Below are positions 5,072-20,631 of a DNA stretch of 64,000 nt, piece after piece. The notes under the pieces were generated by a model. The model was given only the letters and a program-made list of their open reading frames with translations. It made no database searches and was not told the DNA's origin. Position numbers and translations under genes: made by a program. Location: contig JAKAYL010000001.1 in NCBI GenBank assembly GCA_021809545.1, positions 101,710-165,709 of the forward strand, read 5' to 3'. This stretch comes from Thermoplasmata archaeon. GTDB taxonomy: Archaea > Thermoplasmatota > Thermoplasmata > Lutacidiplasmatales > UBA184. Position 1 is the stretch's first letter, and the number at the start of each line of letters is the position of its first letter.

Positions 5072-5162
5072 GCTGACTTTCCCCACGCTCTTCGGTCCTG
5101 ACACCCCACCCTTATACAGTCGGAGGCCTCCCCCTCTTCCCTGAGGACGCGCGGTCAGGGAC

Positions 5163-6836
5163 ATGTCGGCGTTGATCGTGGTTTTTCTTCAGAACCTTCC
5201 CGAGGCGGGCTGGGACATGGGGGCCTCGCTGGTCCGCATGGTGCTCGCGTACCTCCTGTCGCTGGCCTTTGCGATCACGTACGGCTACTTTGCCGCGACC
5301 TCCCGCGTGGCGGAGCGCATCTTGCTTCCGATCCTGGACATCCTCCAATCGGTGCCCATCATGGGCTTCTTTCCCGTGGCCATCGTCTTTTTCGTGAGTC
5401 TCACCGGACCCCAGAGCATCGTCGGGCCCAACTTCGCCGCGGTCTTCCTCATCTTCACCTCGATGTCGTGGAACATGGCATTCGGCGTCTACGAATCCGT
5501 GAAATCGCTCCCGGGGGACCTCAAGGAGGTCTCGGATTCGATGGGGGTCCGGGGGTGGCAACGCGCCCGCCGGCTGTTCCTCCCCTCCACCGCGAACCGG
5601 CTGGTGTACAACTCCGTCCTCTCCTGGACGGCCGGATGGTACTATCTGGTCACTTCCGAGATCTTCTCCACCTATACGACCACCATCGCGCTGCCCGGCA
5701 TTGGGACGTACCTTCTGCGCGCCGCCGCGGGAGGGAACCCCGGCACCATCCTGGCCGGAGTGTTCGTCCTCGTGCTCGTGATCATGCTCCTGAACTTCCT
5801 CTTGTGGAGACCCCTTTCGAAGTGGGCGGAAAAGTACCGCTACGATGTGTCCCCCAGCGGTGAGGCCGGGGAACTCCCGGGCGCTGCCGCAGATCGACGG
5901 GCGTCCCGCATCGTCGGCCGGGCCTTCGTCCGCGGGGCCAGCGTGGTCCGCCGACCCCTCACCCGCCTCGGGGAACGTACCCTCGGTGCCCTAGCCCGGC
6001 AGCCCTCCCCAACCCCGGAACTCGTCCCTTCGAAGAAGTCCCACATGATTGCCCGGAACTCCCTTCATTACCTGGCTTTGGGGATCATTCTCGTCGTGGG
6101 TTGGCTGCTCCTCATCGTCCTCGGGGTCGGGGTGTACAGCACCTACACCTCCCCCATCTCTCCGACGGCGCTGCACTACATCCGGCTGATCCCGCTCGCC
6201 CTCGCCTTCTCGGCCGGACGGGTATTCCTCGCCTACCTCGTGTCCCTCGCCATCGCTTTCCCCCTCGCCCTCTGGATCTTCCGAAGCCGTCGGGGCACGA
6301 GGTTCGGCATGCCCGTGATCCAGGTCATCGCGAGCATTCCGGCCACGGCCCTCTTTCCGCTCTTCCTCTTCAGCCTCAAGGATGTCATCGGGACCGAATC
6401 GGCCGTGATCTTCGTCGTGGTGACCGGCATGCTCTGGTATCTCTTCTTCAACCTCTACTCCGGCCTCCGCACCATCCCTCCCGACCTCGAAGAGGCCGCC
6501 CGATCGATGGGCCTGAAGGGACGTCCCTACTACCGTAAACTGGTCCTCCCCGGCACCTTTGCGGCGTTCGTGACGGGGTCCATCACCGCCTTGGGCGGAG
6601 GATGGAACACGCTCGTCATCGCGGAGTACCTGAGCTACGGGAACCAGCACATCAGCGTCCTGGGACTGGGGGAGCTCATCGATCTCGGGGTCTTTGCCCC
6701 TCCCACAGGCATCGCAGGGGGCTTTCCCCTCATGGTGACCGCCCTCCTCACGCTTACCCTAACGGTGGTCGTGGTCAACAAGTTGATATGGAGGCCCCTC
6801 TACCGCATCGCCACGGAGAAGTACCGGTACGATTAG
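5163..6836 (+). CDS. ABC transporter permease, two fused BPD-type permease domains (NitT/TauT-like)
   Basis: 557 aa with two repeated permease halves and many TM helices. Precedes the ATPase gene. Confidence 0.75.
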   Translation: MSALIVVFLQNLPEAGWDMGASLVRMVLAYLLSLAFAITYGYFAATSRVAERILLPILDILQSVPIMGFFPVAIVFFVSLTGPQSIVGPNFAAVFLIFTSMSWNMAFGVYESVKSLPGDLKEVSDSMGVRGWQRARRLFLPSTANRLVYNSVLSWTAGWYYLVTSEIFSTYTTTIALPGIGTYLLRAAAGGNPGTILAGVFVLVLVIMLLNFLLWRPLSKWAEKYRYDVSPSGEAGELPGAAADRRASRIVGRAFVRGASVVRRPLTRLGERTLGALARQPSPTPELVPSKKSHMIARNSLHYLALGIILVVGWLLLIVLGVGVYSTYTSPISPTALHYIRLIPLALAFSAGRVFLAYLVSLAIAFPLALWIFRSRRGTRFGMPVIQVIASIPATALFPLFLFSLKDVIGTESAVIFVVVTGMLWYLFFNLYSGLRTIPPDLEEAARSMGLKGRPYYRKLVLPGTFAAFVTGSITALGGGWNTLVIAEYLSYGNQHISVLGLGELIDLGVFAPPTGIAGGFPLMVTALLTLTLTVVVVNKLIWRPLYRIATEKYRYD

Positions 6837-6849
6837 TTCCGGGAGGAAT

Positions 6850-7608
6850 ATGGCGCTCATAGATGTTGAGGGGATTTCCAAGAAGGTTCCCGTGCGCCAC
6901 GGGAGCATGGAGATCATCAAGGACGTGACCTTCTCGGTGGCGGACAACGATTTCGTGGCCATCGTGGGTCCGTCCGGGTGCGGAAAATCGACCATCCTCC
7001 GACTCATCCAGGGACTCGATCATCCCTCCGGCGGGCAGATCCGTTTCAAGGGAACCCCCGTCACCGATGTGCGCAAGGAGATGACCATGGTCTTCCAGAG
7101 CTTCGCGCTGTACCCGTGGTTGACGGTGAAGGAGAACGTGACCCTCGGGCTCGAGGCGAGAGGGGTCTCTGCCGAGAAGCAGAGCGAGCTCGTCGAGAAG
7201 TACCTCTCCATCACGGGCCTCGTGGGCTTCGAAGAGGCCTATCCGAGGGAACTCTCGGGCGGGATGCGACAGCGCGTGGGCCTCGCCCGCGCGCTCATCG
7301 TCGATCCCTCCGTTCTCCTCATGGACGAACCCTTCTCCTCGCTCGATCCCCTCACCGCCGAGAGCCTGAGGGACGAAGTGCTCCAACTGTGGGAGGATCC
7401 CTCCATCCCCCCCGAGGCCGTCATCCTCGTAACGCACAACATCGAGGAGGCCCTGATCATGGCGAACCGCATCATCGTCCTCTCCAACCGTCCAAGCACC
7501 GTGCTCGCGGGGGTCCCGGTGAAGCTGCCCCGCCCCCGTGACCGGAAGTCGAAGGCGTTCTACGACATGGTGGACTACGTCTATTCCCTCGTCACTGAGA
7601 GGAAGTGA
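6850..7608 (+). CDS. ABC transporter ATP-binding protein (NitT/TauT family)
   Basis: Walker A GPSGCGKST, signature LSGGMRQR, Walker B LLMDEPF. SD-like GGGAGG sits 4 nt upstream of the ATG. Confidence 0.85.
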   Translation: MALIDVEGISKKVPVRHGSMEIIKDVTFSVADNDFVAIVGPSGCGKSTILRLIQGLDHPSGGQIRFKGTPVTDVRKEMTMVFQSFALYPWLTVKENVTLGLEARGVSAEKQSELVEKYLSITGLVGFEEAYPRELSGGMRQRVGLARALIVDPSVLLMDEPFSSLDPLTAESLRDEVLQLWEDPSIPPEAVILVTHNIEEALIMANRIIVLSNRPSTVLAGVPVKLPRPRDRKSKAFYDMVDYVYSLVTERK

Positions 7609-8022: not shown

Positions 8023-8982
8023 CTACGAGATTCGGCGTGACTTCACGAGGACTCGGAGGGCATTCAGGGTGATCATCTCATTCGGCCCATCGTGGCCCCA
8101 GTCGACCACTTCCGTATTGGCGGCCGAATGTCTTCCCCGATGCCAGTAACGGCCCTCGGAGCGCCAGGTACCATCGTTCGCGCGCTTGGATGCGACGAGG
8201 TCGAGAGCTTCCCGGGTCCTCGGGTCTCCCAGTTTGCCGGCTCGATCGAGCACCCTAAGGGCCTGAAGTATGTCGTAATGCCAGTAGAGGGGATAGTGGA
8301 GTTTCACCCATCGAGGGTTGACCACTGCCTCGCCATGGCAGGACCGGAACAGGCGATGCCTCAGAAAGAACTCGGCGGCCCGGTTGACAGCGTCCCGGGC
8401 CATGCGATCGTCTGTGGCCCGCAGATATTCGCTCAGCCCCCACAAGGTTGCGAGGCTCTCATAGAACGAAGAGTGGGATGCTTCTTTCGATGAGTCACAG
8501 TTCCACCCACCATCTGGCCATTGCCACTGCACGAGCGAGCTGGCGATTCGAATCACACGTGGGTCGTGAGCCATTCCCAGCCGGCAAAACACGCCCAACG
8601 GATTGCCCAACACGGAAGCGTGCAATCTCCATTTGCCGGCGATATTCAAGGGCCTCACCTTGCCATACGGAAGTCGAGAGAGGAGATACTTCGCCGCCTC
8701 GCGGGCGGCGCGGTTCCCCGAAGGCACCCCCAGCTCGACCGCTGAAACAAGACGCCATTGCGGACCGGCCCACTTCTTGTACCAGTGGACGCCAAACCCT
8801 CCGTCGGCCCGCTGGCCGGAGAGGAGCGACCGCAGGCGCGTTCCCCCAGGAATTTGTCGTTTTGTCTCAAGTACTTCGGTGACCCGCGTCGACAGGCCAA
8901 GGAGTTCGGTGAGGGCGAAGTACCGCACCGAGGGATCCTTCGAATTCAAGAGCCAGCGTACGCCGGGTTCGTCTCTATCCAT
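8023..8982 (-). CDS. QW-motif alpha/alpha-toroid protein (terpene-cyclase/prenyltransferase-repeat-like), paralog 1
   Basis: QW-like repeats (LVQWQWPDGGWNC, KRANDGTWRSEG). ATG at complement 8980-8982. Paralogous to 18259..19239. Confidence 0.6.
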   Translation of the reverse strand: MDRDEPGVRWLLNSKDPSVRYFALTELLGLSTRVTEVLETKRQIPGGTRLRSLLSGQRADGGFGVHWYKKWAGPQWRLVSAVELGVPSGNRAAREAAKYLLSRLPYGKVRPLNIAGKWRLHASVLGNPLGVFCRLGMAHDPRVIRIASSLVQWQWPDGGWNCDSSKEASHSSFYESLATLWGLSEYLRATDDRMARDAVNRAAEFFLRHRLFRSCHGEAVVNPRWVKLHYPLYWHYDILQALRVLDRAGKLGDPRTREALDLVASKRANDGTWRSEGRYWHRGRHSAANTEVVDWGHDGPNEMITLNALRVLVKSRRIS

Positions 8983-9162
8983 CAACGTTCATTCGCGGGC
9001 TGAGATGGGACTCATCCTCCAAACCCCGAACGGAGAGACCTGAAGAGGATCGGACCTGCCTTCCCTGAGTCCCAGGGCTTGCCATGGATCCACGCTTTCG
9101 ATCCAGCCCCCCGTCACCCAGGGAGACCATGCCGGATGCGCAGGGGTTGAGTCCTCGCGAGC

Positions 9163-9837
9163 TTAGTAGCTCTTGGCCTGGGTCGACCCCTTCGGGTATT
9201 TCTCCCGGAGGTGGGTGAGGAACTTCTCCCGGTCCCGGTTGATGTGGCCGGCGTGCCAGGCGAGGACCACGTCCTTGACGATGCCGTGGAGGTGGGCCAT
9301 GTTGGCCTCGGCCGCGGGAGCGTCATAGAGGACGACCTGCGTGATGATGCGCATCCAACCGGAGTACTTCTGGTAGGTCTCGCCCTCGCACCACTCGAAG
9401 ATCATGCGGAGGTGGGTCTTTCCTTCCTGGGTGGTGTAGTACCACATCCGGAGCGAGTCACCGACCCAGCCAGGGGTGCGGTCCTTGAGCTCCATGGAGT
9501 TGAGGGCCGAGAAATCGTAGCCCTGCTTGAAGCTCCACTTGTCGGGGAAGCTGTCGAAGAGTGCAAAGCTGGTGTGCGGCGGGTCGATGGTCATGTGGAT
9601 CCCGACCTCGTCGAACATGTTGTGGACCTCCCAGAGATCCTGCAGCAGCCGGCGGGTCGTGTCGATCTTGAGCTGCTTGTTCTCATCCACCTTCTCCGTA
9701 GTCTCCCGGCGCAGACGCTCCACCTCGGAGCGGAGAGACGAGAGAAACTCCTCGTCCCCAATGAGCTCCTTGGCCTGAATTGGCTCTCCCGGACCTGTTG
9801 GAGCGGTGTTGTCTCCCCGCTCGGTTCGCTTTGGCAT
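9163..9837 (-). CDS. hypothetical protein (N-terminal coiled-coil, C-terminal globular domain)
   Basis: 224-aa ORF with ATG start. A TTAAAT TATA element at 9873-9878 lies about 38 nt upstream on the minus strand. No recognisable family. Confidence 0.5.
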   Translation of the reverse strand: MPKRTERGDNTAPTGPGEPIQAKELIGDEEFLSSLRSEVERLRRETTEKVDENKQLKIDTTRRLLQDLWEVHNMFDEVGIHMTIDPPHTSFALFDSFPDKWSFKQGYDFSALNSMELKDRTPGWVGDSLRMWYYTTQEGKTHLRMIFEWCEGETYQKYSGWMRIITQVVLYDAPAAEANMAHLHGIVKDVVLAWHAGHINRDREKFLTHLREKYPKGSTQAKSY

Positions 9838-10074
9838 GGATGAAAACCTCAGGGGGGCATTGGTTGGGGAGGTTAAATTACTTGCTCTCGTGTGGAAAGG
9901 AGACGACCGACCACGGAACCCGCGGGGATTGTGCGCTCTGGGAGAATCTCAGGGTTTCCTGTCCCGCGCCGAGAGGCGAGGGTTTTCCGGAGCGATTTCT
10001 CCCCAGGACCTCACGCGGCGGACAACAGAAAACTCTTAAAGGGACCGTGGCTCCCACCCCTGAGGATACCAAGA

Positions 10075-10359
10075 ATGGTAGCAGTAGATATCGCCATCGC
10101 GAAGTGCACTGGATGCGCCCACTGCAGGGACGTTTGTCCCGTGAATGTGTTCGAACTCCGCCCGAGGAACAACCCAGAGTTTTCCCGTGTGGTCGACGAT
10201 CCGGAAGTGGCCGCCAAATTCCAGTTCCGTGGCGAGAAGTCCGTGGTCATCAACGGTCCCGAGTGCATCGTCTGCGAGGCATGCCTCTTCGAGTGCGAAG
10301 GGGAGTGCATCACGATCACCGACGACGAGGGCACCGTCCACCACTCCACCTACAAGTAG
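10075..10359 (+). CDS. 2x[4Fe-4S] ferredoxin
   Basis: Two cysteine clusters, CTGCAHCRDVCP and CIVCEACLFECEGEC. ATG at 10075, in frame in track ORF 9892..10359. Confidence 0.75.
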   Translation: MVAVDIAIAKCTGCAHCRDVCPVNVFELRPRNNPEFSRVVDDPEVAAKFQFRGEKSVVINGPECIVCEACLFECEGECITITDDEGTVHHSTYK

Positions 10360-10468
10360 GACCCTCTCGGGAACTCCGGCCCCGTCCTGAGCGGGGCCAA
10401 CATCTCCCTTGGTCGACGGGGGATGGCCATCGAGGTAAAGAGTCTCTTAGGCTCTCGAGAAACGAACC

Positions 10469-11587
10469 ATGAACGGAGATCGTTGGCGCGAGCGGGCCCG
10501 GGCGATTGCGGAGGAACTCATCGTCCCCGTGGCGAACCGTATCGACCGGGAGCACTCGATCCCCCCCGAGATCGTTCGACGCATGGCCGGGGAGGGACTC
10601 TTCGGCCTCGCGATCCCGAAGGAGTTCGGGGGCTCGGCCGCCAGTGCCCGGGACATCGCCGCGGTGGTCGAGGAGATCTCCTTCGGAAGCCTCTCGGTCG
10701 CTACGGACCTGGCCGTGCACCTGTCGGTCGCTTCCGCTCCGATCGCCCAGTGGGGCACTCCGGAGCAAAAACAGCGCTGGCTCCCCGCGATGGCCCGGGG
10801 GGAGTGGCTCGGAGCGTTCGCCCTCACGGAGCCTGGCGCTGGCTCCGATGCCCAGCATCTGACGACCCGCTACTCATCCTCTCCCGAGGGTTTCCGGATC
10901 GACGGCGCCAAGACCTTCATCACCAACGGGGGACAGGCCCGGGTCGTGCTCGTGTTCGCCACTCGGGATCCTGGTCTCGAAGCGCGCGGCATCAGCTGCT
11001 TCCTCGTGGAGCACGGGACCCCGGGCTTCACCGTCGCCCGGACGCTGGAGAAGCTTGGGCTCATGGGTTCGGAGACCACCGAGCTCCATTTCGAGGATTG
11101 CCGGGTGGATCGCACCTCCCTCCTCGGTCCCGAAGGGCAGGGCTTTCGCATCGCCATGTCCTCCCTGGAGGGCGGGCGGATAGGGATCTCTGCAAGCTCC
11201 CTCGGGGTGGCCCGGGCCGCCCTAAAGGTACTCCGCGAGAGCGTCCGCACCGATTCCGAGGAATGGGCCCGGGCCGCACTCGCCCGCGCCCACGTCGAGG
11301 TCGAGGCGGCGGGTGCCCTGGTGGAACGCGCCGCGACCCAGAAGGATGCGGGCGTGGACTACGGGCTGGCCGCCTCGGCCGCGAAGCTCTTCGCATCCCA
11401 AGCCGCCTTCCGCGTCGCTTCGAAGGCCCTGGAACTGGTCCTGCAGGGGAACGCGGACGAGAATGCACGGGCCACGGCGAAACGGCTCTTCCGAGATTCG
11501 AGGGTCCTCGCCATCGTGGAAGGGGCCACCGAGATCCAAGAGCTCATCCTGGGCCGGAGACTTGCCAGCCCGCCTCGCGCAGATTGA
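10469..11587 (+). CDS. acyl-CoA dehydrogenase
   Basis: 372 aa. The C-terminus IVEGATEIQELILGRRL is typical of the ACAD family. Confidence 0.85.
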   Translation: MNGDRWRERARAIAEELIVPVANRIDREHSIPPEIVRRMAGEGLFGLAIPKEFGGSAASARDIAAVVEEISFGSLSVATDLAVHLSVASAPIAQWGTPEQKQRWLPAMARGEWLGAFALTEPGAGSDAQHLTTRYSSSPEGFRIDGAKTFITNGGQARVVLVFATRDPGLEARGISCFLVEHGTPGFTVARTLEKLGLMGSETTELHFEDCRVDRTSLLGPEGQGFRIAMSSLEGGRIGISASSLGVARAALKVLRESVRTDSEEWARAALARAHVEVEAAGALVERAATQKDAGVDYGLAASAAKLFASQAAFRVASKALELVLQGNADENARATAKRLFRDSRVLAIVEGATEIQELILGRRLASPPRAD

Positions 11588-11605
11588 GGAGGGGAAGGGA
11601 ACTCG

Positions 11606-11926
11606 CTAAGCCAAGCGAGGCCCCGCCGCACGGTAGGCGGCGAGGAGGCGCTCGACCTCGTCGGGGGAGAGGCCCTGCACGGTCACCGTCTTCTCGCGCG
11701 AAGTCTGCCCCCGGGTGACCAGGACAGCGGAGCGGGGGACCTTGAGCGCGTTCGCCAGAAAGGATTCGATGGCCCGGTTCGCCTCCCCCTCCACAGGGGG
11801 AGATCGGACGGAGACCACCCACGTCTTTCTCCACTCGTCCCACTCCAGGGATTCCCGTTTTGCCCCGGGTCGGGCATGCACCGCGATCCGTGCCTCGGGA
11901 GGCTCCTTGACCACCGGCTTGGACAT
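11606..11926 (-). CDS. DUF167 (YggU-like) protein
   Basis: 106 aa. Pattern ...VHARPGAKRESLEW...VSVRSPPVEGEAN...VTVQGL... matches the DUF167 layout. Confidence 0.65.
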   Translation of the reverse strand: MSKPVVKEPPEARIAVHARPGAKRESLEWDEWRKTWVVSVRSPPVEGEANRAIESFLANALKVPRSAVLVTRGQTSREKTVTVQGLSPDEVERLLAAYRAAGPRLA

Positions 11927-11948
11927 CTCAAGGAAAGGTAGTGTCTCC

Positions 11949-11969
11949 GGAAGGATAAGCTATCCTTCC
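11949..11969 (-). promoter_or_regulatory. perfect 9-bp inverted repeat GGAAGGATA-AGC-TATCCTTCC (TATA-containing palindrome) upstream of the DUF167 gene
   Basis: Seen directly. Centered about 35 nt upstream of the start at 11926. Contains the recurring CTTATC promoter motif. Confidence 0.4.
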
Positions 11970-12009
11970 GACAAAGACTCCGATGCTCCCCGCTTCCAGG
12001 AATCTTTCC

Positions 12010-12075
12010 AAAAAAACGAGGGGGAGCAAGGTCGGAGGAATGGGTTAAGGTGGCAGGGGGGGAATCCCTGCCACC
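12010..12075 (-). terminator. GC-rich hairpin (10-bp stem GGTGGCAGGG/CCCTGCCACC, 12049-12075) followed on the minus strand by a T7 run (12010-12016), downstream of the DUF981 gene
   Basis: Perfect inverted repeat plus oligo-T on the transcribed strand, 40-100 nt past the stop. Confidence 0.45.
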
Positions 12076-12111
12076 CTCGGGGAGACTTCTGTTTGTGGTG
12101 ACGGCCTCCTT

Positions 12112-12900
12112 CTAGGGTGCGCCCCCGGGCCCCGACCCGAGGTGTCCTGGCAAAGTGGAGCCAAACAGAAGTAGTGCAGCGATACCCGCCAGCGCCATGA
12201 AGAACGGGAAGGCCAAGACGAGGAGCTGCACGTAGTAGGGCACGCGGCTCAGCACAGGCACCGACTCCTTGGTCTCCGACGCGTCTCCATCAGCCCCCGG
12301 GATGGTGGCAACTCCGCGGGCCCCCATGGCCGACCGGGCCGAGGTCCGGGACCCGACGGTCGCCCCCCAGATGCTCTTGGAGGCGTCGACGGCCCCGAGG
12401 TAGTAGTCCACGATCACGCTCACCGGGAAGGCGGCGACTCCCGCAACCCCGAAGCCCACGTAGAGCAGGAGGGTCTCGAAGGGGTCCTTGGTGAACTGCG
12501 GGTTGGCCGTGTAGCCCACCCAGCCGTAGAAGGCGACCGCCGCACCCGCAACCAGCGCGAAGATCCCCACGTACTGGAAGCGGAGCTGGGCGAAGACCGC
12601 CACGGCATAGGCGATCAGCACCATCGAGAACAGCATGATGGCGTCAAAGAAGAAGATGTTGTACCCGGCCATGTGGTAGGAGGCGGGGAAAGGCCAGGCG
12701 AGCTCTCCCGCCATGCCCAACACAAAGGCTACGCTGCCTACGATCCCGAGCGGCGCCGCGGCCCCCTTGAGGGTGCTGCGCAAGGCCTTGGCATCGTTCT
12801 TCCGGAGGTTCCACCAGCCGACGATCCCGACATAGGTCAGCACCGCGGCGGCCATGACGAGCAAGAGCTCGACGAACGCTAGATCATCAATGAATGCCAT
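12112..12900 (-). CDS. DUF981-like archaeal polytopic membrane protein
   Basis: Multi-TM protein. ATG at complement 12898-12900; the track extends to a GTG at 12909. An SD-like GGGGGTGA lies upstream. Confidence 0.5.
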   Translation of the reverse strand: MAFIDDLAFVELLLVMAAAVLTYVGIVGWWNLRKNDAKALRSTLKGAAAPLGIVGSVAFVLGMAGELAWPFPASYHMAGYNIFFFDAIMLFSMVLIAYAVAVFAQLRFQYVGIFALVAGAAVAFYGWVGYTANPQFTKDPFETLLLYVGFGVAGVAAFPVSVIVDYYLGAVDASKSIWGATVGSRTSARSAMGARGVATIPGADGDASETKESVPVLSRVPYYVQLLVLAFPFFMALAGIAALLLFGSTLPGHLGSGPGGAP

Positions 12901-13108
12901 GTTCGTCACCCCCTACAGGGTTGGCCCCTGCTCATCTCCTTGGAATGTTCGTTCATATGTGTCGTTCCCATCTCTCACGATAGGTTTCATCTTCGTCACC
13001 TCTGACCATCCCAGCCCGGATAGGGGTCTTAAACGCTGGGAAATTTCCAATCGCTTGTTCCAATTTCTTGTAAGGGATGCGCCGGGGTGGCTCCCCCGGA
13101 GATTGGGG

Positions 13109-14101
13109 CTACGGTCCCTTCGATTTCGTTACGAGCGCCGTCAGCGCGGGGAGGATGGTCAGGGCGTCCCCGGCAAGACCATAGTCGGCGACCTTGAAGA
13201 TCGGGGCAGCGGGGTCTTTGTTGATCGCCACGATGCAACGGGAGTTCGTGATCCCCACGAGATGCTGGATGGCGCCGGAGATCCCCGCGGCGATGTAGAG
13301 CTGCGGGGCGATGATCTTCCCGGTCTGCCCGACCTGGTAGGAGGCGGGGCGCCAGCCGGCGTCGACCACGGCCCGGGACGAGCCCACCGCCGCCCCGAGG
13401 ACCTTGGCCAGGTCCTCGACCATAACGAAGTTCTCGGGCCCCTTGAGGCCCCGACCCCCGGAGACCACGATCGCGGCCTCGGTGAGCTCCGGGGTGTCCC
13501 CCCGGGTGCTGACGACCTTCTCGACCGCCACGCCCTGGGCGTGGACGGGAAGGGCCCCCAGCTCGACCTTCTCCACGGGAGGATCCCCTGCCGCGGGCGC
13601 GTCGACGGCAAAGGAATTGGGACGGAGGCTGAGGACGGGAGTTCCCTTGAGTTCCAGGGTCTCGGTGGCCTTGCCGCCGAAGACCTTGCGCTTCACGGTC
13701 ACCTTTCCCGCAGGGTCCGCGTGGATCTCGACCACCGCAGTGGCTGTCCCGGCCCCGAGGAGGGCCCCGAGGCGGGGGGCGAGCTCACGGCCCAGGGCGG
13801 AGTCGGGCAGGAAGATGGCCCATGGCAGGGTGAGCTTGGGGATGAGCCGGGAAACCGCCTGGGCGTAGGCAGAAGCGGAGAACGCCCGCAAATGCTCGTC
13901 GTCCACGACGAGCACGCGGTTGACCCCGCGGGTCTTCGCTTCTTCGATGACCGCGGAGAGCCCCGAGCCGACGAGCGCCGCGACGACCTCGCCACCGCCC
14001 GCTTGGGCGGCGACGCGACGGGCCTCGGAGAGTGCTTCCAGGGAGGCGCCCTTCAGGTGGCCGTCCCGCTGGTCGGTGACCACGAGGATGCTGAGCGTCA
14101 T
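13109..14101 (-). CDS. etfA: electron transfer flavoprotein alpha subunit
   Basis: 330 aa with the EtfA FAD-binding C-terminal region. Its start overlaps the etfB stop (ATGA). Confidence 0.85.
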
Positions 14102-14901
14102 AGTACCTTCGCCTCCTCCTTGAGGACCTTGAGGAGCTTCGTGGCGGCCTCCTCGGGGGTCTGGAACTCGAGCATCTTGGCGCCCGAGCGCGGGGGTGGG
14201 AGCGTGAAGGAGGTGACCGCCGAGGTCGGCTGGAACCCTCCCTTGAGGACGGAGACCTTCGCCTCCAGGTCCTTCACCGGGATCTTCTTCAGGGGCTTCT
14301 TCCGGGCCTTCAGGATGTTCGGGAGCGTAGGGGTACGGGGGTCCTTGGCCCCCTTGAGGATGGAGAGGACCGCCGGGAAGGGGCCGGAGAAGACCTCCTC
14401 GCCCCCTTCCAGGTACCGGCGCATCTTGAGCTGGTGGCTCGCGGCGACGGGCGTGAGCTCGGTCACGAAGGAATAGCTTGGAAGCCCTAGGTACTCCCCT
14501 AGAGCGCTGCCTACCGCGCCCGCCTCGTCGTCCTGGGCGTGGCGCCCCACGAGCACGAGGTCATGGGGAATGTCCGCGGCGGCGGCGGCGAGCAGGCGTG
14601 CCGTGAACAGCGGGTCCAACTCCATGCCCGGCGGGGTCTCGACGAGGACCGCCTCGTCGGCGCCCATCGCGAGGGTGGCCCGCAGGGCCTCCTCGGCCCG
14701 GGCCGGTCCCACGCTCAAAGCCCGAACGGAGGTGAAGCCGAACTCCTCCTTCATGCGGAGGGCCTCCTCGACCATGGCCTCGTCGTAGGTGTTGTTGATC
14801 GTGAATTTGACCCCGTCCGTGTCGAGGGCCTTTCCGGAGGGAGCGACTCGCAGCTTGGTCTCCGGGTCGGGGACCTGCTTGACACACACCAGGACGTCCA
14901 T
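14098..14901 (-). CDS. etfB: electron transfer flavoprotein beta subunit
   Basis: N-terminus MDVLVCVKQVPD is typical of EtfB. Confidence 0.85.
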   Translation of the reverse strand: MDVLVCVKQVPDPETKLRVAPSGKALDTDGVKFTINNTYDEAMVEEALRMKEEFGFTSVRALSVGPARAEEALRATLAMGADEAVLVETPPGMELDPLFTARLLAAAAADIPHDLVLVGRHAQDDEAGAVGSALGEYLGLPSYSFVTELTPVAASHQLKMRRYLEGGEEVFSGPFPAVLSILKGAKDPRTPTLPNILKARKKPLKKIPVKDLEAKVSVLKGGFQPTSAVTSFTLPPPRSGAKMLEFQTPEEAATKLLKVLKEEAKVL

Positions 14902-14911
14902 CGGGAGCCTT

Positions 14912-16063
14912 CTAGGCGAACCGCTTGAGGAGCTCTTTCGCGATCACGAGCCGTTGGATCTCGTTCGAGCCCTCGTAGATCTGGGTCAGTTTCGCATCCC
15001 GCAAGAGCTTCTCCACGGGGTACTCGCGCATGTAGCCGTATCCGCCGAACACCTGGATCGCCTCGTTGGCGACCTCCATAGCGGAATCTGAGGCAAAGCA
15101 CTTGGCGATCGAGCTCTCCATCGGGACCGGTTTCCCTTGGTCCGCAAGCCAGGCGGAGTACCAGACCAACAACCGGGCCGCGGTCACTTTCTGCGCCATA
15201 TCGGCCAGCTTGAGCGCGATGGCTTGATGCTCCCCGATCGGCTTCCCGAAGGAAGAGCGCTGAAGGGAGTACTTGGCCGCGTGGTCCAGGGCGGCCCGGG
15301 CGATCCCCGTGGCCAGGGCCCCGATCGGGGTCCGCGTGGAATCCAGCGTGTTCATGGCGATCTTGAAACCATCCCCTTCCTCTCCCAACCGGTTGGCGAC
15401 CGGGACCCGGGCGTTCTCGAAGGTGATGGAACTGGTCGCCGAGGCGCGGTGTCCCAGCTTGTCCTCATCCTTTCCGACAGTGATGCCCGGGGTGTTCCGG
15501 GGCACGACGATGGCCGTGACCCCCTTGTGGCGACGGGCGGCGTCGACAGTGGCGAAGAGGGTGTAGATCGAGGCGTGGGGGGCGTTCGTGATGAAGACCT
15601 TCTCCCCGTTGATGACGTACTCGTCCCCTTCCCGCTTCAGGGTCGTCTTCATGGAGGCGACATCGCTCCCTCCACTGGGTTCGGTGAGGGCGAAGGAGGC
15701 GAGGTTGTACGATGCGCAGAAAGGCTTCAGCAACCGCTCCTTCTGCTCCTTCGTGGCCGCGAGATTGATGGGCTGGAGTGCGAGGCAGTTGGCTGAGATG
15801 GATGTGGTCATCCCCCCGCAAGCGTAAGCCAGTTCCTCGGTGATGATACACTGGTCGAGCTCGCCCAGACCCGAGCCACCGAACTCCGTCGGTACGTTGA
15901 GGTTCATGAGACCGAGCTCCCAAGCCTTGCGGTAGACGTCCTCGGGGAACTCCCCCAGTTTGTCGGCCTTGGCGGCGCGGGGCGCCATCACGTCCCGTGC
16001 GAAGCGGCGGGCCAGTTCCTGGAGCTCCTTCTGCTCCTGGGTCAGTTCAAAGTCGATCGCCAT
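14912..16063 (-). CDS. acyl-CoA dehydrogenase
   Basis: 383 aa. The ACAD C-terminus ...YEGSNEIQRLVIAKELL is present. Confidence 0.85.
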   Translation of the reverse strand: MAIDFELTQEQKELQELARRFARDVMAPRAAKADKLGEFPEDVYRKAWELGLMNLNVPTEFGGSGLGELDQCIITEELAYACGGMTTSISANCLALQPINLAATKEQKERLLKPFCASYNLASFALTEPSGGSDVASMKTTLKREGDEYVINGEKVFITNAPHASIYTLFATVDAARRHKGVTAIVVPRNTPGITVGKDEDKLGHRASATSSITFENARVPVANRLGEEGDGFKIAMNTLDSTRTPIGALATGIARAALDHAAKYSLQRSSFGKPIGEHQAIALKLADMAQKVTAARLLVWYSAWLADQGKPVPMESSIAKCFASDSAMEVANEAIQVFGGYGYMREYPVEKLLRDAKLTQIYEGSNEIQRLVIAKELLKRFA

Positions 16064-16088
16064 CTCGACCGGGTCCCAACGAGAAAGG

Positions 16089-16098
16089 CTATTTCAAA
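16089..16098 (+). promoter_or_regulatory. TATA-like TATTTCAAAT, 30 nt upstream of the larB ATG
   Basis: AT-rich element in the 43-nt divergent gap between ACAD(-) and larB(+). Confidence 0.4.
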
Positions 16099-16124
16099 TC
16101 TAGTACGTGCCCCTACCCAGATTC

Positions 16125-16937
16125 ATGGGAGACCACCTAGAAGACCTGCTGCACGCGGTGCGCAAAGGGGACGTCAGCGTCGCGGACGCGGCCCGGGCCC
16201 TCTCCGAGGGACACCTCCCGGGAGGGAAGGGAGCACGGATCGACTTCCGCCGGATGGAGCGGACGGGGCTCCCGGAGATCATCCTGGCGGAGGGTAAGGA
16301 CCCGGAGGACCTGCGCAAGATCGTCGAGGAACTCTCGCGCGCCCACCAGGAAGTGATCATCTCCCGCGTGAGCGGGGCGAACCGGCGTCTCCTCGAAAGA
16401 CTCGCTTCCGCAGGAATCCCCCTCACCTTCCCTCCCCGGACCTCCCTGGCCCTGCTCAGGGGACAGACCATGACCCCCCTCCAGGGCCGGGTGGTCGCCG
16501 TCCTCACGGCCGGCACCGCAGACCTGTCGGTAGCCGAGGAAGCCGCGATCGTCCTCTCCTCGCTCGGGGCGGAAGTGGTCCGGGCCTACGACATCGGCGT
16601 CGCGGGGCTCCATCGCCTGACCCGGGCCCTGGCCGACCCTGCGGTTCAGAGGGCCCAGGTCTTCGTGGTCTGCGCAGGCCGCGAAGGGGCTCTCCCTACG
16701 GTCGTGGCCGGGCTCGTCGATCGGCCCATCGTCGCCATTCCCACCTCCGTAGGATATGGTCGGGGGGCCAAGGGGGAAGGGGCCCTCACCGCCATGCTCC
16801 AGTCCTGCGCACCCCTCGCCGTGGTGAACATCGACGGCGGAGTGCCGGCCGCGCTGGTCGCTGCGCAGATACTGCGCCATCTCCCCCCCGCAGGGAAGAA
16901 GCGGCGCGGGCCGACGAAGGCCCGGGCGGGCCGGTAG
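16125..16937 (+). CDS. larB: LarB-like nickel-pincer-cofactor biosynthesis carboxylase (PurE-like)
   Basis: N-terminal ...LLHAVRKGDVSVADAA...RIDFRRMERTGLPEIIL plus a PurE-like C-terminal half. ATG at 16125 lies 30 nt downstream of the TATA-like TATTTCAAAT. The track starts at a GTG at 16107. Confidence 0.65.
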   Translation: MGDHLEDLLHAVRKGDVSVADAARALSEGHLPGGKGARIDFRRMERTGLPEIILAEGKDPEDLRKIVEELSRAHQEVIISRVSGANRRLLERLASAGIPLTFPPRTSLALLRGQTMTPLQGRVVAVLTAGTADLSVAEEAAIVLSSLGAEVVRAYDIGVAGLHRLTRALADPAVQRAQVFVVCAGREGALPTVVAGLVDRPIVAIPTSVGYGRGAKGEGALTAMLQSCAPLAVVNIDGGVPAALVAAQILRHLPPAGKKRRGPTKARAGR

Positions 16938-17034
16938 CCTACCACCTTCCGAAGGACGGGCCCCGGAGGCCCGGAGTGTTACGCTCCAAAAAAACGTCAT
17001 AACCCTTATCTACTGCCGCCTCGTGGTCGGTGCG

Positions 17035-18135
17035 ATGGAGGCCGTCTCAGCGGAGGCCCCTCAGGTTGCCCTGTCCAAAGGGGAAGTCACGGGGGTCATC
17101 CTTCTCTATGTGGCCATCGGGATCTCCACCGCGGTGGCGATCGCCCTCTCGATCACCATCGGGAACGCCTACCCCATCTTGGCCGGGCTCGGGGTCGTCT
17201 CCTTCATCCTGGGGCTCCGGCACGGGTTCGATGCGGACCACATCGCTGCGATCGACAACACCACGCGCAAGCTCCTCAACCAGGGGGAGAAGCCGCTCAC
17301 GGTCGGGACCTGGTTCTCCCTGGGGCACTCCACGATCATCGCGGGCCTCTTGGTGGCCCTCGTGGTCGCCACGGATTTCATCGCGAACAACATCACGAAC
17401 TTCGCCGCCTACGGGGCGGTGATCGGCACGGTCATCTCCGGGGTCTTCCTCTGCATCATCGGCTTCATCAACCTCCTCATCGTCTTCGAACTGTACGGCA
17501 CCTTCCACGGGCTGCGCTCGGGAAAGCTCGACCAGGCCCGCCTGGAGGAGCAGCTCAACCAGCGGGGCTTCATGAACCGGATCTTCGGCGGGCTCTTCCG
17601 CTTCGTGAACAAGCCCTGGCAGATCTACCCCATCGGTATTCTCTTCGGCCTGGGCTTCGACACCGCGACGGAGGTCGCGTTCTTGGCCCTCGGGGTCACG
17701 GCCGCTACCGCGTTCAATCATCCGCCGCTCTGGACCATCATGATCCTCCCGTTCATGTTCACCTGCGGGATGGTCCTCTCCGACACGACGGACGGCGTCT
17801 CGATGCGCTATGCCTACGGGTGGGCGTTCCTCAACCCCATCCGGAAGATCTACTACAACCTCACGATCACGGTCATCTCGGTCCTCGTCGCCTTCCTCAT
17901 CGGGGGGGTGGAGTTCCTGCAGGTGATCTCTAGGGAACTCGGCTGGTCCGGTCCGGTCTGGGCGACCCTGCAGGGGATCTCCTTCACCCGACTGGGCCTC
18001 CTCATCATCGGAGTGTTCCTCGTGGCCTGGATCGTCGCCATGGCCGTGTACCGGCTCAAGGGATACGAGCGCACGGGCTTCGGGGCCGCCCCGTCCGGAC
18101 CCCCCCAGAAAGAGCCGGAACCAACGGTCACCTAG
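17035..18135 (+). CDS. NiCoT-family (HoxN/HupN/NixA) nickel/cobalt permease
   Basis: Signature GLRHGFDADHIAAIDNTTRKL with eight TM helices. ATG at 17035; the track has a GTG at 17023. Confidence 0.85.
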   Translation: MEAVSAEAPQVALSKGEVTGVILLYVAIGISTAVAIALSITIGNAYPILAGLGVVSFILGLRHGFDADHIAAIDNTTRKLLNQGEKPLTVGTWFSLGHSTIIAGLLVALVVATDFIANNITNFAAYGAVIGTVISGVFLCIIGFINLLIVFELYGTFHGLRSGKLDQARLEEQLNQRGFMNRIFGGLFRFVNKPWQIYPIGILFGLGFDTATEVAFLALGVTAATAFNHPPLWTIMILPFMFTCGMVLSDTTDGVSMRYAYGWAFLNPIRKIYYNLTITVISVLVAFLIGGVEFLQVISRELGWSGPVWATLQGISFTRLGLLIIGVFLVAWIVAMAVYRLKGYERTGFGAAPSGPPQKEPEPTVT

Positions 18136-18258
18136 AGCGTTCCGTCCCTTTTTCGGGAACCCCACGGCCTCGCCGGATCCTTTTCGCTGACGAGGGGAAA
18201 CGGCGTCCGCTCGGGTGGGCATCGATGCGCGTTCCTGACGTTCTGCTCTGTTCGTGCC

Positions 18259-19239
18259 CTACGGATCGGCGCCCGCTCTCTTCAGGACGGTGAGCGCCTT
18301 GAGCGTGATCCACTTGCTCGGCTTCCCGGGGGCCTCGATCTGGAGCGGCCGTTCCTCTTTCGCGTCCGAGGACCGGGTCCCCAGGTCGGGATGCAGCTTG
18401 TCCATGGCCCACGTCCCGTCGGGCCGGCGCTTCTCTCTCAGGACGTCCAGGGCGGGGCGCAGCCTGCGGTCGGCTCCGAAGCCCAGTTGGGTGAGGACAT
18501 CGAGTCCCACCAGGATGTCGTAATAGTAGTGGTTGGGATAGTGGAAACGGAACCACGGAGGATACCGGCGCCCCTCCTCGAAAAGCTTGCGTTCGAGGTA
18601 AAACTCGGCCCCTCGTACAATTGCTCGCTCCATGGCCGGAGAGCGTTTCGGCCGTGGGACGGACCCGAGGGCGGCCAGCGGCTCCCAGGCGTCGAGCGTC
18701 CCGGGAGTCCCCTGGGAACAGTTCCAGCCGCCGTCCTCCCGCTGATCCTCGAGGATCCAATCGAAGAGCTTCCGAATCCGGCGGTCGTCGCCGTATCCGA
18801 AGCGGGTCATCATCCGGGCCGTGTTCCCGACCATGCACATCTCCTCGTAGAAGAAATTGAAGGGGGAACTGAAACGAAGCTTGTAGTCGAACATCAGGTC
18901 GGCGATCCTACGGATCCTCGGATCGGCTTTGTCGAGGCCGAGGTCGGAGAGGACCAGCGCCCTCCACAACGTGGCGTGATACATCGGGCGCCAGAGGAAG
19001 GTGGTCCACTCCGCGAAATTCCGGGGCTCACGGCGCTCCCAGAATCCCTTGGGTCCCTGCTGCCGCAGCAGGTCCGCGGCCCACCCCATACGGCCTATCT
19101 GGGACCGGACCCGCCGAACCTCCGGGTCCGTTTCCTTGCGGTCGAGGAGATCCTTCAGCGCGAGATACCGGACGGCGGGTTGCTCCTTCTCGAGAAGCCA
19201 TCGGAGAGTGTCCCCAGCGTCTCCGGTCTCCGCAGGCAT
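18259..19239 (-). CDS. QW-motif alpha/alpha-toroid protein (terpene-cyclase/prenyltransferase-repeat-like), paralog 2
   Basis: Motifs ILEDQREDGGWNC and KRRPDGTWAMD. The N-terminus aligns with paralog 1 (LRWLLEKEQPAVRYLALKDLL vs VRWLLNSKDPSVRYFALTELL). ATG at complement 19237-19239. Confidence 0.6.
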   Translation of the reverse strand: MPAETGDAGDTLRWLLEKEQPAVRYLALKDLLDRKETDPEVRRVRSQIGRMGWAADLLRQQGPKGFWERREPRNFAEWTTFLWRPMYHATLWRALVLSDLGLDKADPRIRRIADLMFDYKLRFSSPFNFFYEEMCMVGNTARMMTRFGYGDDRRIRKLFDWILEDQREDGGWNCSQGTPGTLDAWEPLAALGSVPRPKRSPAMERAIVRGAEFYLERKLFEEGRRYPPWFRFHYPNHYYYDILVGLDVLTQLGFGADRRLRPALDVLREKRRPDGTWAMDKLHPDLGTRSSDAKEERPLQIEAPGKPSKWITLKALTVLKRAGADP

Positions 19240-19427
19240 AACATCTGTTGTAGAGGTCCTGGCGCTACTTAATCTGGCGTTGACGAAAACAGGACTCTGC
19301 CGGCGCTCTCCGGAGTGGGACCATCGCTCCCCAGGAGTCCCCAACGGAACAGGGTGGTGCTTGCGGTCCAGTGACTTGGGTGTGTAAGAGAGGGGGGCGT
19401 CCGCTTCCCAAACCGACTCCGCGATTG

Positions 19428-20522
19428 TCAGTGGAGGAATCCACCGATCCCGAGCCCTATGAGATAGGTCAGGGCGGCAGAGCCGAGTCCGATGACCACC
19501 ATCTCGAGACCCCCGCGTCCCAGGGAGGTAAGGGTGGAGAGCGAGCGGAATACACCGGTCGCGAACAGTACTATGGTACTCGCGGCCACGCTCACGATCA
19601 TGGACGGGAGCGGGGCCAGGAAGAAGAAGGGAAGGAGCGGTACGGCGCCGGCCAGTCCAAAGGCGACCCCGGTGATGAGCCCGAGCCGGACAGGGTTGCT
19701 GAAACTGCTCTCCCCCACCCCGTGGCGCTCGGCCAGGAGGACGCGGGCGAACTCCTCGTCGTCGGTGGCGATCCGGGCCACGATCGACTGTGCCTCAGCG
19801 CGCGAGAAACCTTTCTGGAGGTAGATCTCGGTGAGCTGGAGGACCTTGGTAGAACGATCCACCTCGATAGCATCCCGTTCCAAGGTGCGCAGCCCCGTGA
19901 ACATCTCCGCCTCCGCCTTGACGGAAACGTAGTTGGAGGCCGCCATCGAAATGGCCCCGGCAACGAGACCCGCGGTGCCGGCGATCAACACCTCGGGGTT
20001 GGAACTGGTGGCCCCGACCACCCCGGCGGAGAGCGCGAGGATGGTCCCGATCCCATCGTTCGCCCCCAGCACCGCGCTCCGGAGGGATCCCCCCTCACGG
20101 GCCGCGCTCCGCGCCTCGTTCGAGGTGTCGATCTCGTGGGAGAACTCGTCAGGGAGCAGCGTCTCGAAGATCCGGGTGAGCTCCGGATCCTTCCAAGCGG
20201 TCAGCTGGGCATGGTACTTCTTGATCCCGTCCACCTCGTCCTTGTGGACCGCGGAGAGGACGGTCGTCACCCCGAAAACGCGGGCCAGTCCGGCGAAGAT
20301 CCGGTGCTTCAGGATCATCCGTTCCGTCGGGGCCGGATACTGATGATGGTCCAGCACGCTCTTCCAGAGGGAGGCATGGCGGTCCTCGAAGGACGCCAGC
20401 ACCGAGAGGGTGTCCCTTCTCTTGGGTTTAGGATCGAGCGCCGCCAGGCGCTCGTAGAGCATCTTGCTGGAGACCTCCTCGAGGTAATTCCGTGCGACCT
20501 CCCTTAACACTCTCGCGTCCAT
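19428..20522 (-). CDS. ferritin-like (erythrin) and VIT1/CCC1 fusion membrane protein (MbfA-like iron transporter)
   Basis: The N-terminal domain has two E..H motifs (FEDRH, EFSHE). The C-terminal half has a VIT1-like TM region (GANDGIGTILALSAG...). ATG at complement 20520-20522 from sequence alignment. The track ORF extends upstream through implausible low-complexity sequence. Confidence 0.6.
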   Translation of the reverse strand: MDARVLREVARNYLEEVSSKMLYERLAALDPKPKRRDTLSVLASFEDRHASLWKSVLDHHQYPAPTERMILKHRIFAGLARVFGVTTVLSAVHKDEVDGIKKYHAQLTAWKDPELTRIFETLLPDEFSHEIDTSNEARSAAREGGSLRSAVLGANDGIGTILALSAGVVGATSSNPEVLIAGTAGLVAGAISMAASNYVSVKAEAEMFTGLRTLERDAIEVDRSTKVLQLTEIYLQKGFSRAEAQSIVARIATDDEEFARVLLAERHGVGESSFSNPVRLGLITGVAFGLAGAVPLLPFFFLAPLPSMIVSVAASTIVLFATGVFRSLSTLTSLGRGGLEMVVIGLGSAALTYLIGLGIGGFLH

Positions 20523-20631
20523 GGCCAGTGAGAGGAGATGCAAGGCGGTGGTATTAGCCCCTTCGATGCCTGCGGGACCTTGGTTGGAAACGTAAGAACA
20601 GCTATTTGCCTCAAAGTACCTTGTACGGAAC

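Follow-up and report, generated by a model that had tools for sequence, protein, structure and literature searches.

Single-toroid paralogues of a Thermoplasmata archaeon and their family, related to squalene cyclases and lacking the class II acid motif

The window, a stretch of 64,000 nucleotides from a Thermoplasmata archaeon, encodes two proteins, here called A and B, that carry repeats of the squalene cyclase type in chains long enough for a single toroid domain. A sequence-only reading of this DNA had considered them terpene-cyclase-like and had seen a hint of isoprenoid chemistry in a nearby UbiA gene. The question is whether such proteins are protonation-type cyclases or whether the toroid serves another chemistry.

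Genes A and B and their surroundings

Both open reading frames were present on the minus strand in the ORF list and on translation, and the motif strings and shared N-terminus quoted in the sequence-only reading were found in the translations. Its length of 319 aa for A was confirmed, while that of B was corrected from 327 to 326 aa by translation and by the identical NCBI/ENA protein P0001. Protein A starts at an ATG, with a TTG one codon upstream at 8985, and the frame of B can be extended to a TTG at 19344. A and B aligned over their full length with 30% identity (BLASTP, E 1e-31) and are full-length, diverged paralogues. Their features are listed below; family position numbers are those of protein B.

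8023..8982, minus strand: gene for protein A (319 aa), predicted single-domain (alpha/alpha)6 toroid, His133/Ser135 subtype (ORF list, AlphaFold2, translation checked)
8899..8961, minus strand: A, VRWLLNSKDPSVRYFALTELL, N-terminal pair of helices predicted to form the toroid's first hairpin (family alignments, translation)
8614..8622, minus strand: A, H121-A-S123, homologous to SHC D374-V-D376 (DxDD site), where inner helix 3 begins (profile-to-SHC alignment, column statistics)
8497..8529, minus strand: A, QWQWPDGGWNC, QW-like hairpin and, directly after it, the near-invariant Cys162 (8497-8499) (conservation, translation)
8458..8460, minus strand: A, Glu175 (family 183), candidate carboxylate ligand where inner helix 4 begins (column E 54%, D 31%; couplings 134-187 and 133-182)
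8278..8280, minus strand: A, His235 (family 239), part of the aromatic loop HYPLYWHYD that precedes inner helix 5 (subtype-dependent column)
8164..8175, minus strand: A, DGTW, third xGxW hairpin repeat (motif scan, translation)
18259..19239, minus strand: gene for protein B (326 aa), predicted monodomain toroid paralogue of the Glu133/Cys135 subtype (ORF list, AlphaFold2)
19144..19206, minus strand: B, conserved N-terminal motif LRWLLEKEQPAVRYLALKDLL (alignment, translation)
18835..18843, minus strand: B, E133-M-C135, aligned to SHC D374-V-D376, with Cys in the place of the general acid (profile-to-SHC alignment, translation)
18718..18750, minus strand: B, EDQREDGGWNC, including the invariant Cys174 (18718-18720) (column statistics, translation)
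18691..18693, minus strand: B, Asp183, candidate carboxylate ligand (column statistics, translation)
18409..18420, minus strand: B, DGTW, third xGxW hairpin repeat (motif scan, translation)

The N-terminal motifs (8899-8961 and 19144-19206) share the pattern (V/L)RWLL...P.VRY.AL..LL, in which L15, P21, and R24 were conserved to at least 80-90% in two family alignments. The QW repeats described earlier correspond to three xGxW cores per protein and one Q...DGGW, whereas the strict QW regular expression matched neither protein. In the central hairpin, Q, D, G, G, and W were each conserved in at least 92% of the family, and the Cys after DGGW in 98%.

The M20/AKR/ABC block (2391-7608) and the NicO permease gene (17023-18135), which A and B had been said to follow, do adjoin them, but both lie on the plus strand; the A and B genes converge on them and are thus not co-transcribed with them. 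In a survey of 83 loci, using six-frame ORFs clustered by all-against-all BLAST, the commonest neighbours were generic (ABC ATPase, 14; SDR, 13; Zn-ADH, 10; M29-like, 9; VOC, 7). NicO, LarB, VIT1, UbiA, and a 224-aa ORF of the window recurred in none of the related loci surveyed, and the five loci of A-type orthologues (70-75% identity) had no neighbour in common. Genome context was therefore not conserved even among close orthologues, and a conserved neighbourhood was rejected, as no partner recurred across about 100 related loci. The UbiA gene at 20632 encodes a MenA-like quinone prenyltransferase by a sub-threshold match, lies past the oppositely oriented VIT1 gene as seen from B, and has counterparts near 0 of about 100 related loci, which leaves the isoprenoid hint without support. 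LarB and NicO adjoin B and CbiMQO adjoins one relative; a nickel/cobalt link was rejected as anecdotal (2 loci).

A total of 4251 homologues of protein A were found, mainly in MAGs of Thermoplasmata, Nitrososphaerales, and Bathyarchaeia and in a few bacteria, with multiple paralogues and an expansion in archaea of soil and acid environments. No Pfam or NCBIfam model covers the family, cluster look-ups and homologue searches returned only the name "hypothetical protein", and no paper describing the family and no characterised homologue were found in the literature. The family comprises thousands of sequences that at present bear this name. Two of the 150 family representatives listed were fused to an APH-type kinase; a lanthipeptide/RiPP role, an idea arising from these rare fusions, was rejected, as there were no LANC_like matches and no RiPP context. 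PADLOC gave no matches for anti-phage defence.

Fold and relation to known toroid families

AlphaFold2 confidently predicted one (alpha/alpha)6 toroid for each protein (pLDDT 91.6 and pTM 0.91 for A; pLDDT 83 and pTM 0.86 for B), with six inner and six outer helices, and these models bear out the single-toroid size and the alpha/alpha-toroid fold proposed from the sequence. With 319 and 326 aa and one toroid each, the beta-gamma two-domain architecture is absent. No solved structure was close to the family; Foldseek matched FTase beta with an E-value of 0.02.

Among the families compared, only SHC and the class II beta/gamma domains, which share the toroid with Q..DGGW-type hairpins, had significant sequence similarity. 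The family profile (92 sequences) matched SHC with an E-value of 2.9e-21, the match being split over four or five individual hairpins; for drimenyl diphosphate synthase (DMS, 7XQZ), the E-value was 5e-11. Single-sequence Pfam matches of B were sub-threshold (25.7 and 23 bits; cutoffs 26.2 and 26.1) and A had none; TIGR01787 gave 22.9 bits against a cutoff of 322.7. Weak SQHop_cyclase_C matches were obtained for 43 of the 92 members and sub-threshold Prenyltrans matches for 14 (best E 4.8e-6; none for A and B). By these comparisons, the likeness to squalene cyclases is above chance, yet weak, and appears confined to the DGGW hairpin repeats, and the family is best explained as a branch of the terpenoid-cyclase/prenyltransferase toroid superfamily.

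The catalytic motifs of the cyclases were missing. A motif scan found no DxDD, DDxxD, or NSE/DTE in A and B, and the predicted fold is a toroid and not the alpha-helical bundle of class I terpene synthases. In the profile-to-SHC alignment, family columns 133 and 135 fell on D374 and the acid D376, respectively; the column at D376 was Cys or Ser and that two residues earlier was Cys, Glu, or His, so that none of the class II acids DxDD, VxDC, and DxD stands at this site. Over the same stretch, the D376C chain 2sqc scored 19.5 bits and the wild-type 1gsz 11.9 bits, a difference of 7.6 bits. The terpene-cyclase reading is thus not supported. Compared with SHC-type cyclases, the family has one toroid instead of two, variable polar residues ([C/E/H]-x-[C/S]) at the start of the inner helix on which cyclases have DxDD, an invariant Cys after DGGW, scores below the family thresholds, and no isoprenoid gene context. 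The monodomain class II cyclases (MstE, 6SBB; 8PAJ/8PAK) share the single domain, but similarity to them was marginal (E 0.002-0.1; profile to MstE, 0.024-0.11) and weaker than to SHC; MstE uses a DxD motif for protonation (PMC12414744), and the family has no acid at the homologous site. The latest survey of the terpenoid cyclase superfamily weighed a monodomain root (PMC12414744), and a large monodomain branch without the acid is a natural outgroup for testing a monodomain origin. Carrying the weak SQHop_cyclase matches over as squalene or terpene cyclase names would wrongly imply archaeal synthesis of cyclic triterpenoids.

A match to LanC or a glycoside hydrolase, named by the sequence-only reading as counter-evidence, was looked for and not found. 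For LanC/LanCL, LANC_like matched 0 of the 92 members, the motifs GxxG, WCxG, and CHG were absent from the family, and no RiPP genes lay nearby. The GH127/GH146 beta-L-arabinofuranosidases (DUF1680) resemble the family in their (alpha/alpha)6 barrel, and their four-ligand Zn site is like the one proposed here; no sequence similarity was detected, and they were not among the top 60 structural matches. They differ further in size, with about 650 aa in several domains, and in their location in sugar-utilisation loci. AGE epimerases (cellobiose 2-epimerase 5ZIG) had 7-13% identity and no profile match, and the catalytic His pair of AGE was not conserved in the family. The beta subunits of protein prenyltransferases (FTase, GGTase) share the single toroid, a similar size, and an aromatic pocket. 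Their zinc is bound by Asp-x-Cys at an inner-helix N-terminus and a ligand from the next hairpin, a layout also predicted for E/H/C133-x-C135 with C174/E183. The analogous family set, [E/H/C]-x-[C/S] with C174/E183/H239, is compensated to four candidate ligands. The family, however, falls well below the Pfam threshold, its ligand positions and types differ, and neither an alpha-subunit partner nor a recurrent neighbour of any kind was evident in the loci surveyed.

Conservation and compensation in the pocket

Weighted residue statistics were obtained from 548 sequences (Neff 302). Position 133 was C (.37), E (.31), or H (.26), position 135 S (.52) or C (.46), position 174 C (.98; His rare), position 183 E (.54) or D (.31), and position 241 D (.92). 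Exactly four C/H/D/E residues were found over positions 133, 135, 174, 180, 183, and 239 in 87% of the family; these are H121, C162, E175, and H235 in A (His2-Cys-Glu) and E133, C135, C174, and D183 in B (Cys2-Glu-Asp). The variance of this count was 0.146; shuffling the columns gave 0.64, and 0 of 2000 shuffles reached so low a value. Its ratio to the independent expectation was 0.20 (500 control sets: mean 1.03, minimum 0.46); the six positions were picked after the patterns had been seen, and the statistic is inflated by shared ancestry because a few large subfamilies make up the family. Positions 133 and 174 exchange Cys for His, and the pair Ser135/His239 alternates with Cys135/Tyr239, position 239 being His if 135 is Ser and Tyr or Phe if it is Cys. 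These exchanges suggest ligands rather than a disulfide.

Mean-field DCA ranked the pairs 134-187 first, 182-236 second, 129-178 ninth, 173-180 35th, and 133-176 67th of 52,975. The family's strongest couplings thus join the segments bearing the pocket residues, consistent with spatial clustering; the nearness of the four residues is deduced from SHC homology and DCA at a modest Neff. Basic residues K86 and R131 are present in A-type proteins and both are missing from B, which makes different substrates for the two paralogues probable.

Possible chemistries of the pocket

We tentatively favour, at somewhat under an even chance, a new metal/thiolate-centred toroid family over a protonation-type terpene cyclase. 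A and B would be soluble monodomain toroids that retain the scaffold of DGGW hairpins and a central pocket rich in aromatic residues, with [Cys/Glu/His]133-x-[Cys/Ser]135 at the site of the class II DxDD general acid. Together with Cys174, Glu/Asp183, His239, and occasionally Cys180, this pair would supply the constant four ligand-type residues for a divalent metal, with Zn2+ as the likeliest candidate. A small substrate would be converted or bound in the pocket by a thiolate that the metal holds or activates, and no protonation-initiated polyene cyclisation would occur. A chemistry different from that of the cyclases is probable because the acid is replaced by a Cys-centred cluster resembling a metal site. 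Zinc in toroids has precedents in prenyltransferase beta subunits (Asp/Cys/His) and LanC (Cys2His). The (alpha/alpha)6 barrel of GH127 has a Zn(Cys3Glu) site to which the catalytic Cys contributes a ligand (PMC8106489). Should the metal/thiolate reading prove correct, the family would be the fourth independent (alpha/alpha)6 toroid with a catalytic zinc-cysteine centre, after prenyltransferases, LanC, and GH127. Four protein ligands would saturate zinc, and a structural role of the site agrees with this as well as a catalytic role does.

The same residues can be read in other ways. Isoprenoid enzymes, either non-canonical class II cyclases or terpene hydratases/isomerases, could use Cys, His, and Glu for metal-free acid-base chemistry, as linalool dehydratase-isomerase does with a Cys pair and a His. 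This is unlikely: the homologous site has no DxDD or DxD, thiols protonate alkenes poorly, the profile matches MstE less well than SHC, isoprenoid genes are not recurrent near family loci, and the constant four C/H/D/E residues with Cys-to-His swaps suit ligands better than a fixed acid-base pair. A non-catalytic role, with a structural four-ligand metal or as a metal or small-ligand binder or scaffold, is given a similarly low probability. Transcobalamin and intrinsic factor are toroid ligand carriers, and TED domains offer a further non-catalytic comparison; however, the strongest co-evolution and the subtype remodelling fall in one pocket, as is typical of substrate-specificity divergence in enzymes, and metal-transport neighbours occurred in only 2 of about 100 loci.

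A carbohydrate-active role, either as cysteine glycosidases of the GH127 kind, whose nucleophile is bound to zinc, or as sugar epimerases/isomerases of the AGE type, appears improbable. A redox-active dithiol/disulfide, with Cys133 or Cys135 paired with Cys174, would agree with the two or more cysteines that about 81% of the weighted family has at pocket positions and with protein B, whose only two cysteines (C135 and C174) both occupy pocket positions. As Cys174 stands alone, with His replacing the partner, in about 19% of the family (protein A among them), and His occasionally replaces Cys174 itself, we consider this pairing highly improbable.

There is also a slim chance that the family comprises prokaryotic, alpha-subunit-independent zinc-thiolate alkyl or prenyl transferases acting on protein, peptide, or low-molecular-weight thiols. 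Such enzymes would correspond, in archaea, to LanCL or to the beta subunit of protein prenyltransferases. An ICMT-Rce1 association as a general link was rejected, since an ICMT/PEMT gene occurred in 2 of about 100 loci, and none of 13 metagenome loci with relatives of the ICMT-Rce1 fusion described next contained a toroid gene. The one hint of such a transferase comes from a single locus (L087), in which a gene for a fused ICMT/PEMT-type methyltransferase and Rce1-like protease, both post-prenylation CAAX-processing activities, overlaps the start of a family member by 4 bp, and a second toroid paralogue follows the first.

Two paralogous toroid proteins and their family

Two genes of the window encode proteins A and B, both predicted to be single (alpha/alpha)6 toroids:

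8023-8982, minus strand: gene of protein A, intact ORF, 319 aa counted from the ATG
18259-19239, minus strand: gene of protein B, intact ORF, 326 aa, with the same sequence as an NCBI/ENA protein encoded on a 125-kb contig

The two proteins matched each other end to end in BLASTP (30% identity, E 1e-31) and are therefore paralogues. The sequence-only reading had described them as QW-motif toroid proteins; all the strings it quoted were present in the translations, and its structural observation was confirmed. Both are probably cytoplasmic, because neither contained a membrane-spanning hydrophobic segment (maximum Kyte-Doolittle 19-residue mean of about 1.0) or a signal-like N-terminus. Among the six-frame ORFs of at least 60 codons in the window, the family HMM matched just these two copies.

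Homologues of A and of B each numbered in the thousands, and every named one was a hypothetical protein. When 1.84 billion cluster representatives were searched exhaustively with a profile, 464 clusters came up at E <1e-30 and 2428 at E <1e-10, mostly 310-340 aa long. At least 572 family loci were found in a scan of GTDB species genomes, the best 80 of which belonged to Thermoplasmata (many of them MAGs from acid soil or peat), Nitrososphaerales, Bathyarchaeia, and a single Acidiferrales bacterium. The family also has a member in Acidimicrobiia, and several genomes carried two or three copies, at times in tandem. The family is uncharacterised; it falls outside every Pfam, NCBIfam, and PADLOC model, no paper describing it was found in the literature, and a 2025 survey of the cyclase superfamily (PMC12414744) made no mention of Thermoplasmata or Nitrososphaerales relatives.

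Relation to terpene cyclases

Single family sequences gave only sub-threshold matches to SQHop_cyclase. A profile built from 92 members matched squalene-hopene cyclase (SHC; E 2.9e-21), drimenyl diphosphate synthase (5e-11), and Rv3377c (1e-9), in each case through several separate hairpin repeats; the monodomain class II cyclase MstE reached just 0.02-0.1. SQHop_cyclase_C was touched by 43 of the 92 members, Prenyltrans by 14, and LANC_like by none. On these E-values and Pfam tallies, the family is placed by sequence in the terpenoid-cyclase/prenyltransferase toroid superfamily, but in none of its defined families.

A motif search found no DxDD, DDxxD, or NSE/DTE in A or B, and a strict QW regular expression had no match in either; each protein carried three xGxW cores. 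The family stretch r-e-a-C-v-e-G-N was aligned by HMMER on P-D374-V-D376-D377-T-A-V of SHC. D376 is the general acid of SHC and sits at the top of its central cavity. At this site the family has thus retained a functional-looking position and exchanged the acid. The 2sqc and 3sqc chains of SHC read DVCDTA and 1gsz reads DVDDTA. Over this stretch, 2sqc, with Cys at 376, scored 19.5 bits versus 11.9 for wild-type 1gsz, and it was because of this single cysteine at the acid position that 2sqc and 3sqc outranked wild-type SHC in the family-profile searches.

Pocket residues and proposed function

Residue use at pocket positions, weighted over 548 family sequences (Neff about 302; protein B numbering)
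133: Cys 37%, Glu 31%, His 26%
135: Ser 52%, Cys 46%
174 (directly after DGGW-N): Cys 98%, His rare
183: Glu 54%, Asp 31%
235: Pro, invariant
239: His 55%, Tyr 26%
241: Asp 92%

Subtypes, as residues at 133/135/174/183/239
(C or H)/S/C/E/H: most of the family, including A
E/C/C/D/(Y or F): subtype of B
E/C/C/T/H: third subtype
Fourth subtype: Cys at 135, 174, and 180

In 87% of the family, positions 133, 135, 174, 180, 183, and 239 together contained exactly four Cys, His, Asp, or Glu residues. The variance of this count was 0.146, compared with 0.64 in column shuffles (0 of 2000 as low), and amounted to 0.20 of the independent expectation, against a mean of 1.03 and a minimum of 0.46 in 500 six-column control sets; these values apply to positions picked after the data were seen, in a family with strong subfamily structure. 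The four ligand-type residues are H121, C162, E175, and H235 in A and E133, C135, C174, and D183 in B, C135 and C174 being the only cysteines of B. The strongest mean-field DCA couplings joined the very segments bearing these candidate ligands (among 52,975 pairs, 134-187 ranked 1, 182-236 ranked 2, 129-178 ranked 9, 173-180 ranked 35, and 133-176 ranked 67), in agreement with a putative pocket that the N-termini of inner helices 2-5 would form. Lys86 and Arg131 adjoin the site in most of the family, including A. Since Met and Tyr occupy these places in B, the two proteins probably differ in substrate.

Ligand-type residues that stay constant in number but move from one position to a neighbouring one, along with exchanges of Cys for His, look like a protein-bound metal site. 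We tentatively propose a new family of metal/thiolate-centred toroids that would act on a small substrate within a pocket rich in aromatic residues, rather than a protonation-type cyclase. A metal site with a purely structural role is unlikely. A metal-free Cys/His isoprenoid enzyme is equally so, as a fixed acid-base pair would fit poorly with a pattern in which the count is constant and the positions shift. The two cysteines of B might suggest a dithiol redox protein; this is very improbable, since only one Cys lies in the pocket of A-type proteins, which does not fit a disulfide.

Prenyltransferase beta subunits, LanC, and GH127 are known toroids with a zinc-cysteine centre at the place where a metal is proposed here. 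The nucleophilic Cys of GH127 is bound in a Zn(Cys3Glu) site (PMC8106489; PMC10728902). That the family is itself a sugar-active toroid seems quite doubtful.

Gene neighbourhoods and leads at other loci

The gene of A converges on a plus-strand block of M20 peptidase, aldo-keto reductase, and ABC importer genes (2391-7608), and that of B converges on plus-strand LarB-NicO (16107-18135), with a VIT1-family gene as its upstream same-strand neighbour. None of the window neighbours, including the MenA-like UbiA gene at 20632, recurred near about 100 related loci. As the acid motifs are also absent, the terpene-cyclase or isoprenoid role inferred in the sequence-only reading, partly from this UbiA gene, is not supported. 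The surroundings of orthologues with 70-75% identity were unrelated, and these genes often stood behind long intergenic stretches. Given both results, the genes look like stand-alone units, whose context offers no functional clue.

Directly upstream of A on the same strand, a 224-aa ORF (9163-9837, minus) matched nothing in Pfam, NCBIfam, or PADLOC and was absent beside A orthologues elsewhere. The window also carries a fatty-acid or amino-acid oxidation cluster (9892-16063), interspersed with DUF167 and DUF981 genes:

9892-10359: 2x[4Fe-4S] ferredoxin
10469-11587: acyl-CoA dehydrogenase
13109-16063, minus strand: acyl-CoA dehydrogenase/ETF-beta/ETF-alpha operon

LarB, a gene of nickel-pincer cofactor synthesis (NCBIfam NF033503, 225 bits versus a cutoff of 175), is followed after 86 bp by the NicO nickel/cobalt permease, and the two look like a compact nickel-cofactor supply pair. 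In the region 19428-21516, the longest VIT1 ORF (457 aa, TTG start) runs about 170 bp into the beginning of the divergent UbiA/MenA-like gene, and the true VIT1 start is therefore probably further downstream; the approximately 240 residues N-terminal to the VIT1 domain had no family match.

An A orthologue at L003 has a DUF3463-containing radical SAM protein (HpnH-like architecture; 9169-10269) immediately downstream and a PEMT-family gene 3.4 kb away; neither was seen at other loci. The arrangements at two further loci and two rare fusions are anecdotal leads. At L087 (3646-6970), an ICMT/PEMT-type methyltransferase is fused to an Rce1-like (CPBP) protease in a 452-aa protein whose gene shares 4 bp with the start of a family member (5001-5978). 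Next comes a second, divergent toroid paralogue (5990-6970), in which family positions 135, 174, and 180 are Cys. This fusion-toroid-toroid order is reminiscent of a CAAX-processing set and did not reappear in 13 loci with relatives of the fusion halves. At L086 (2206-6289), a family member (5001-5999) has a divergent CbiM-CbiQ-ABC nickel/cobalt importer on one side and, downstream, an ArsR/HTH_5-type regulator. Metal-transport neighbourhoods were found at 2 of about 100 loci, namely L086 and that of protein B, flanked by NicO and VIT1. The fusions are family members with a C-terminal APH-type phosphotransferase domain, P0295 (669 aa) and P0319 (699 aa; Pfam APH, E 1.2e-9), and might hint at a substrate that is a phosphorylated small molecule or peptide.
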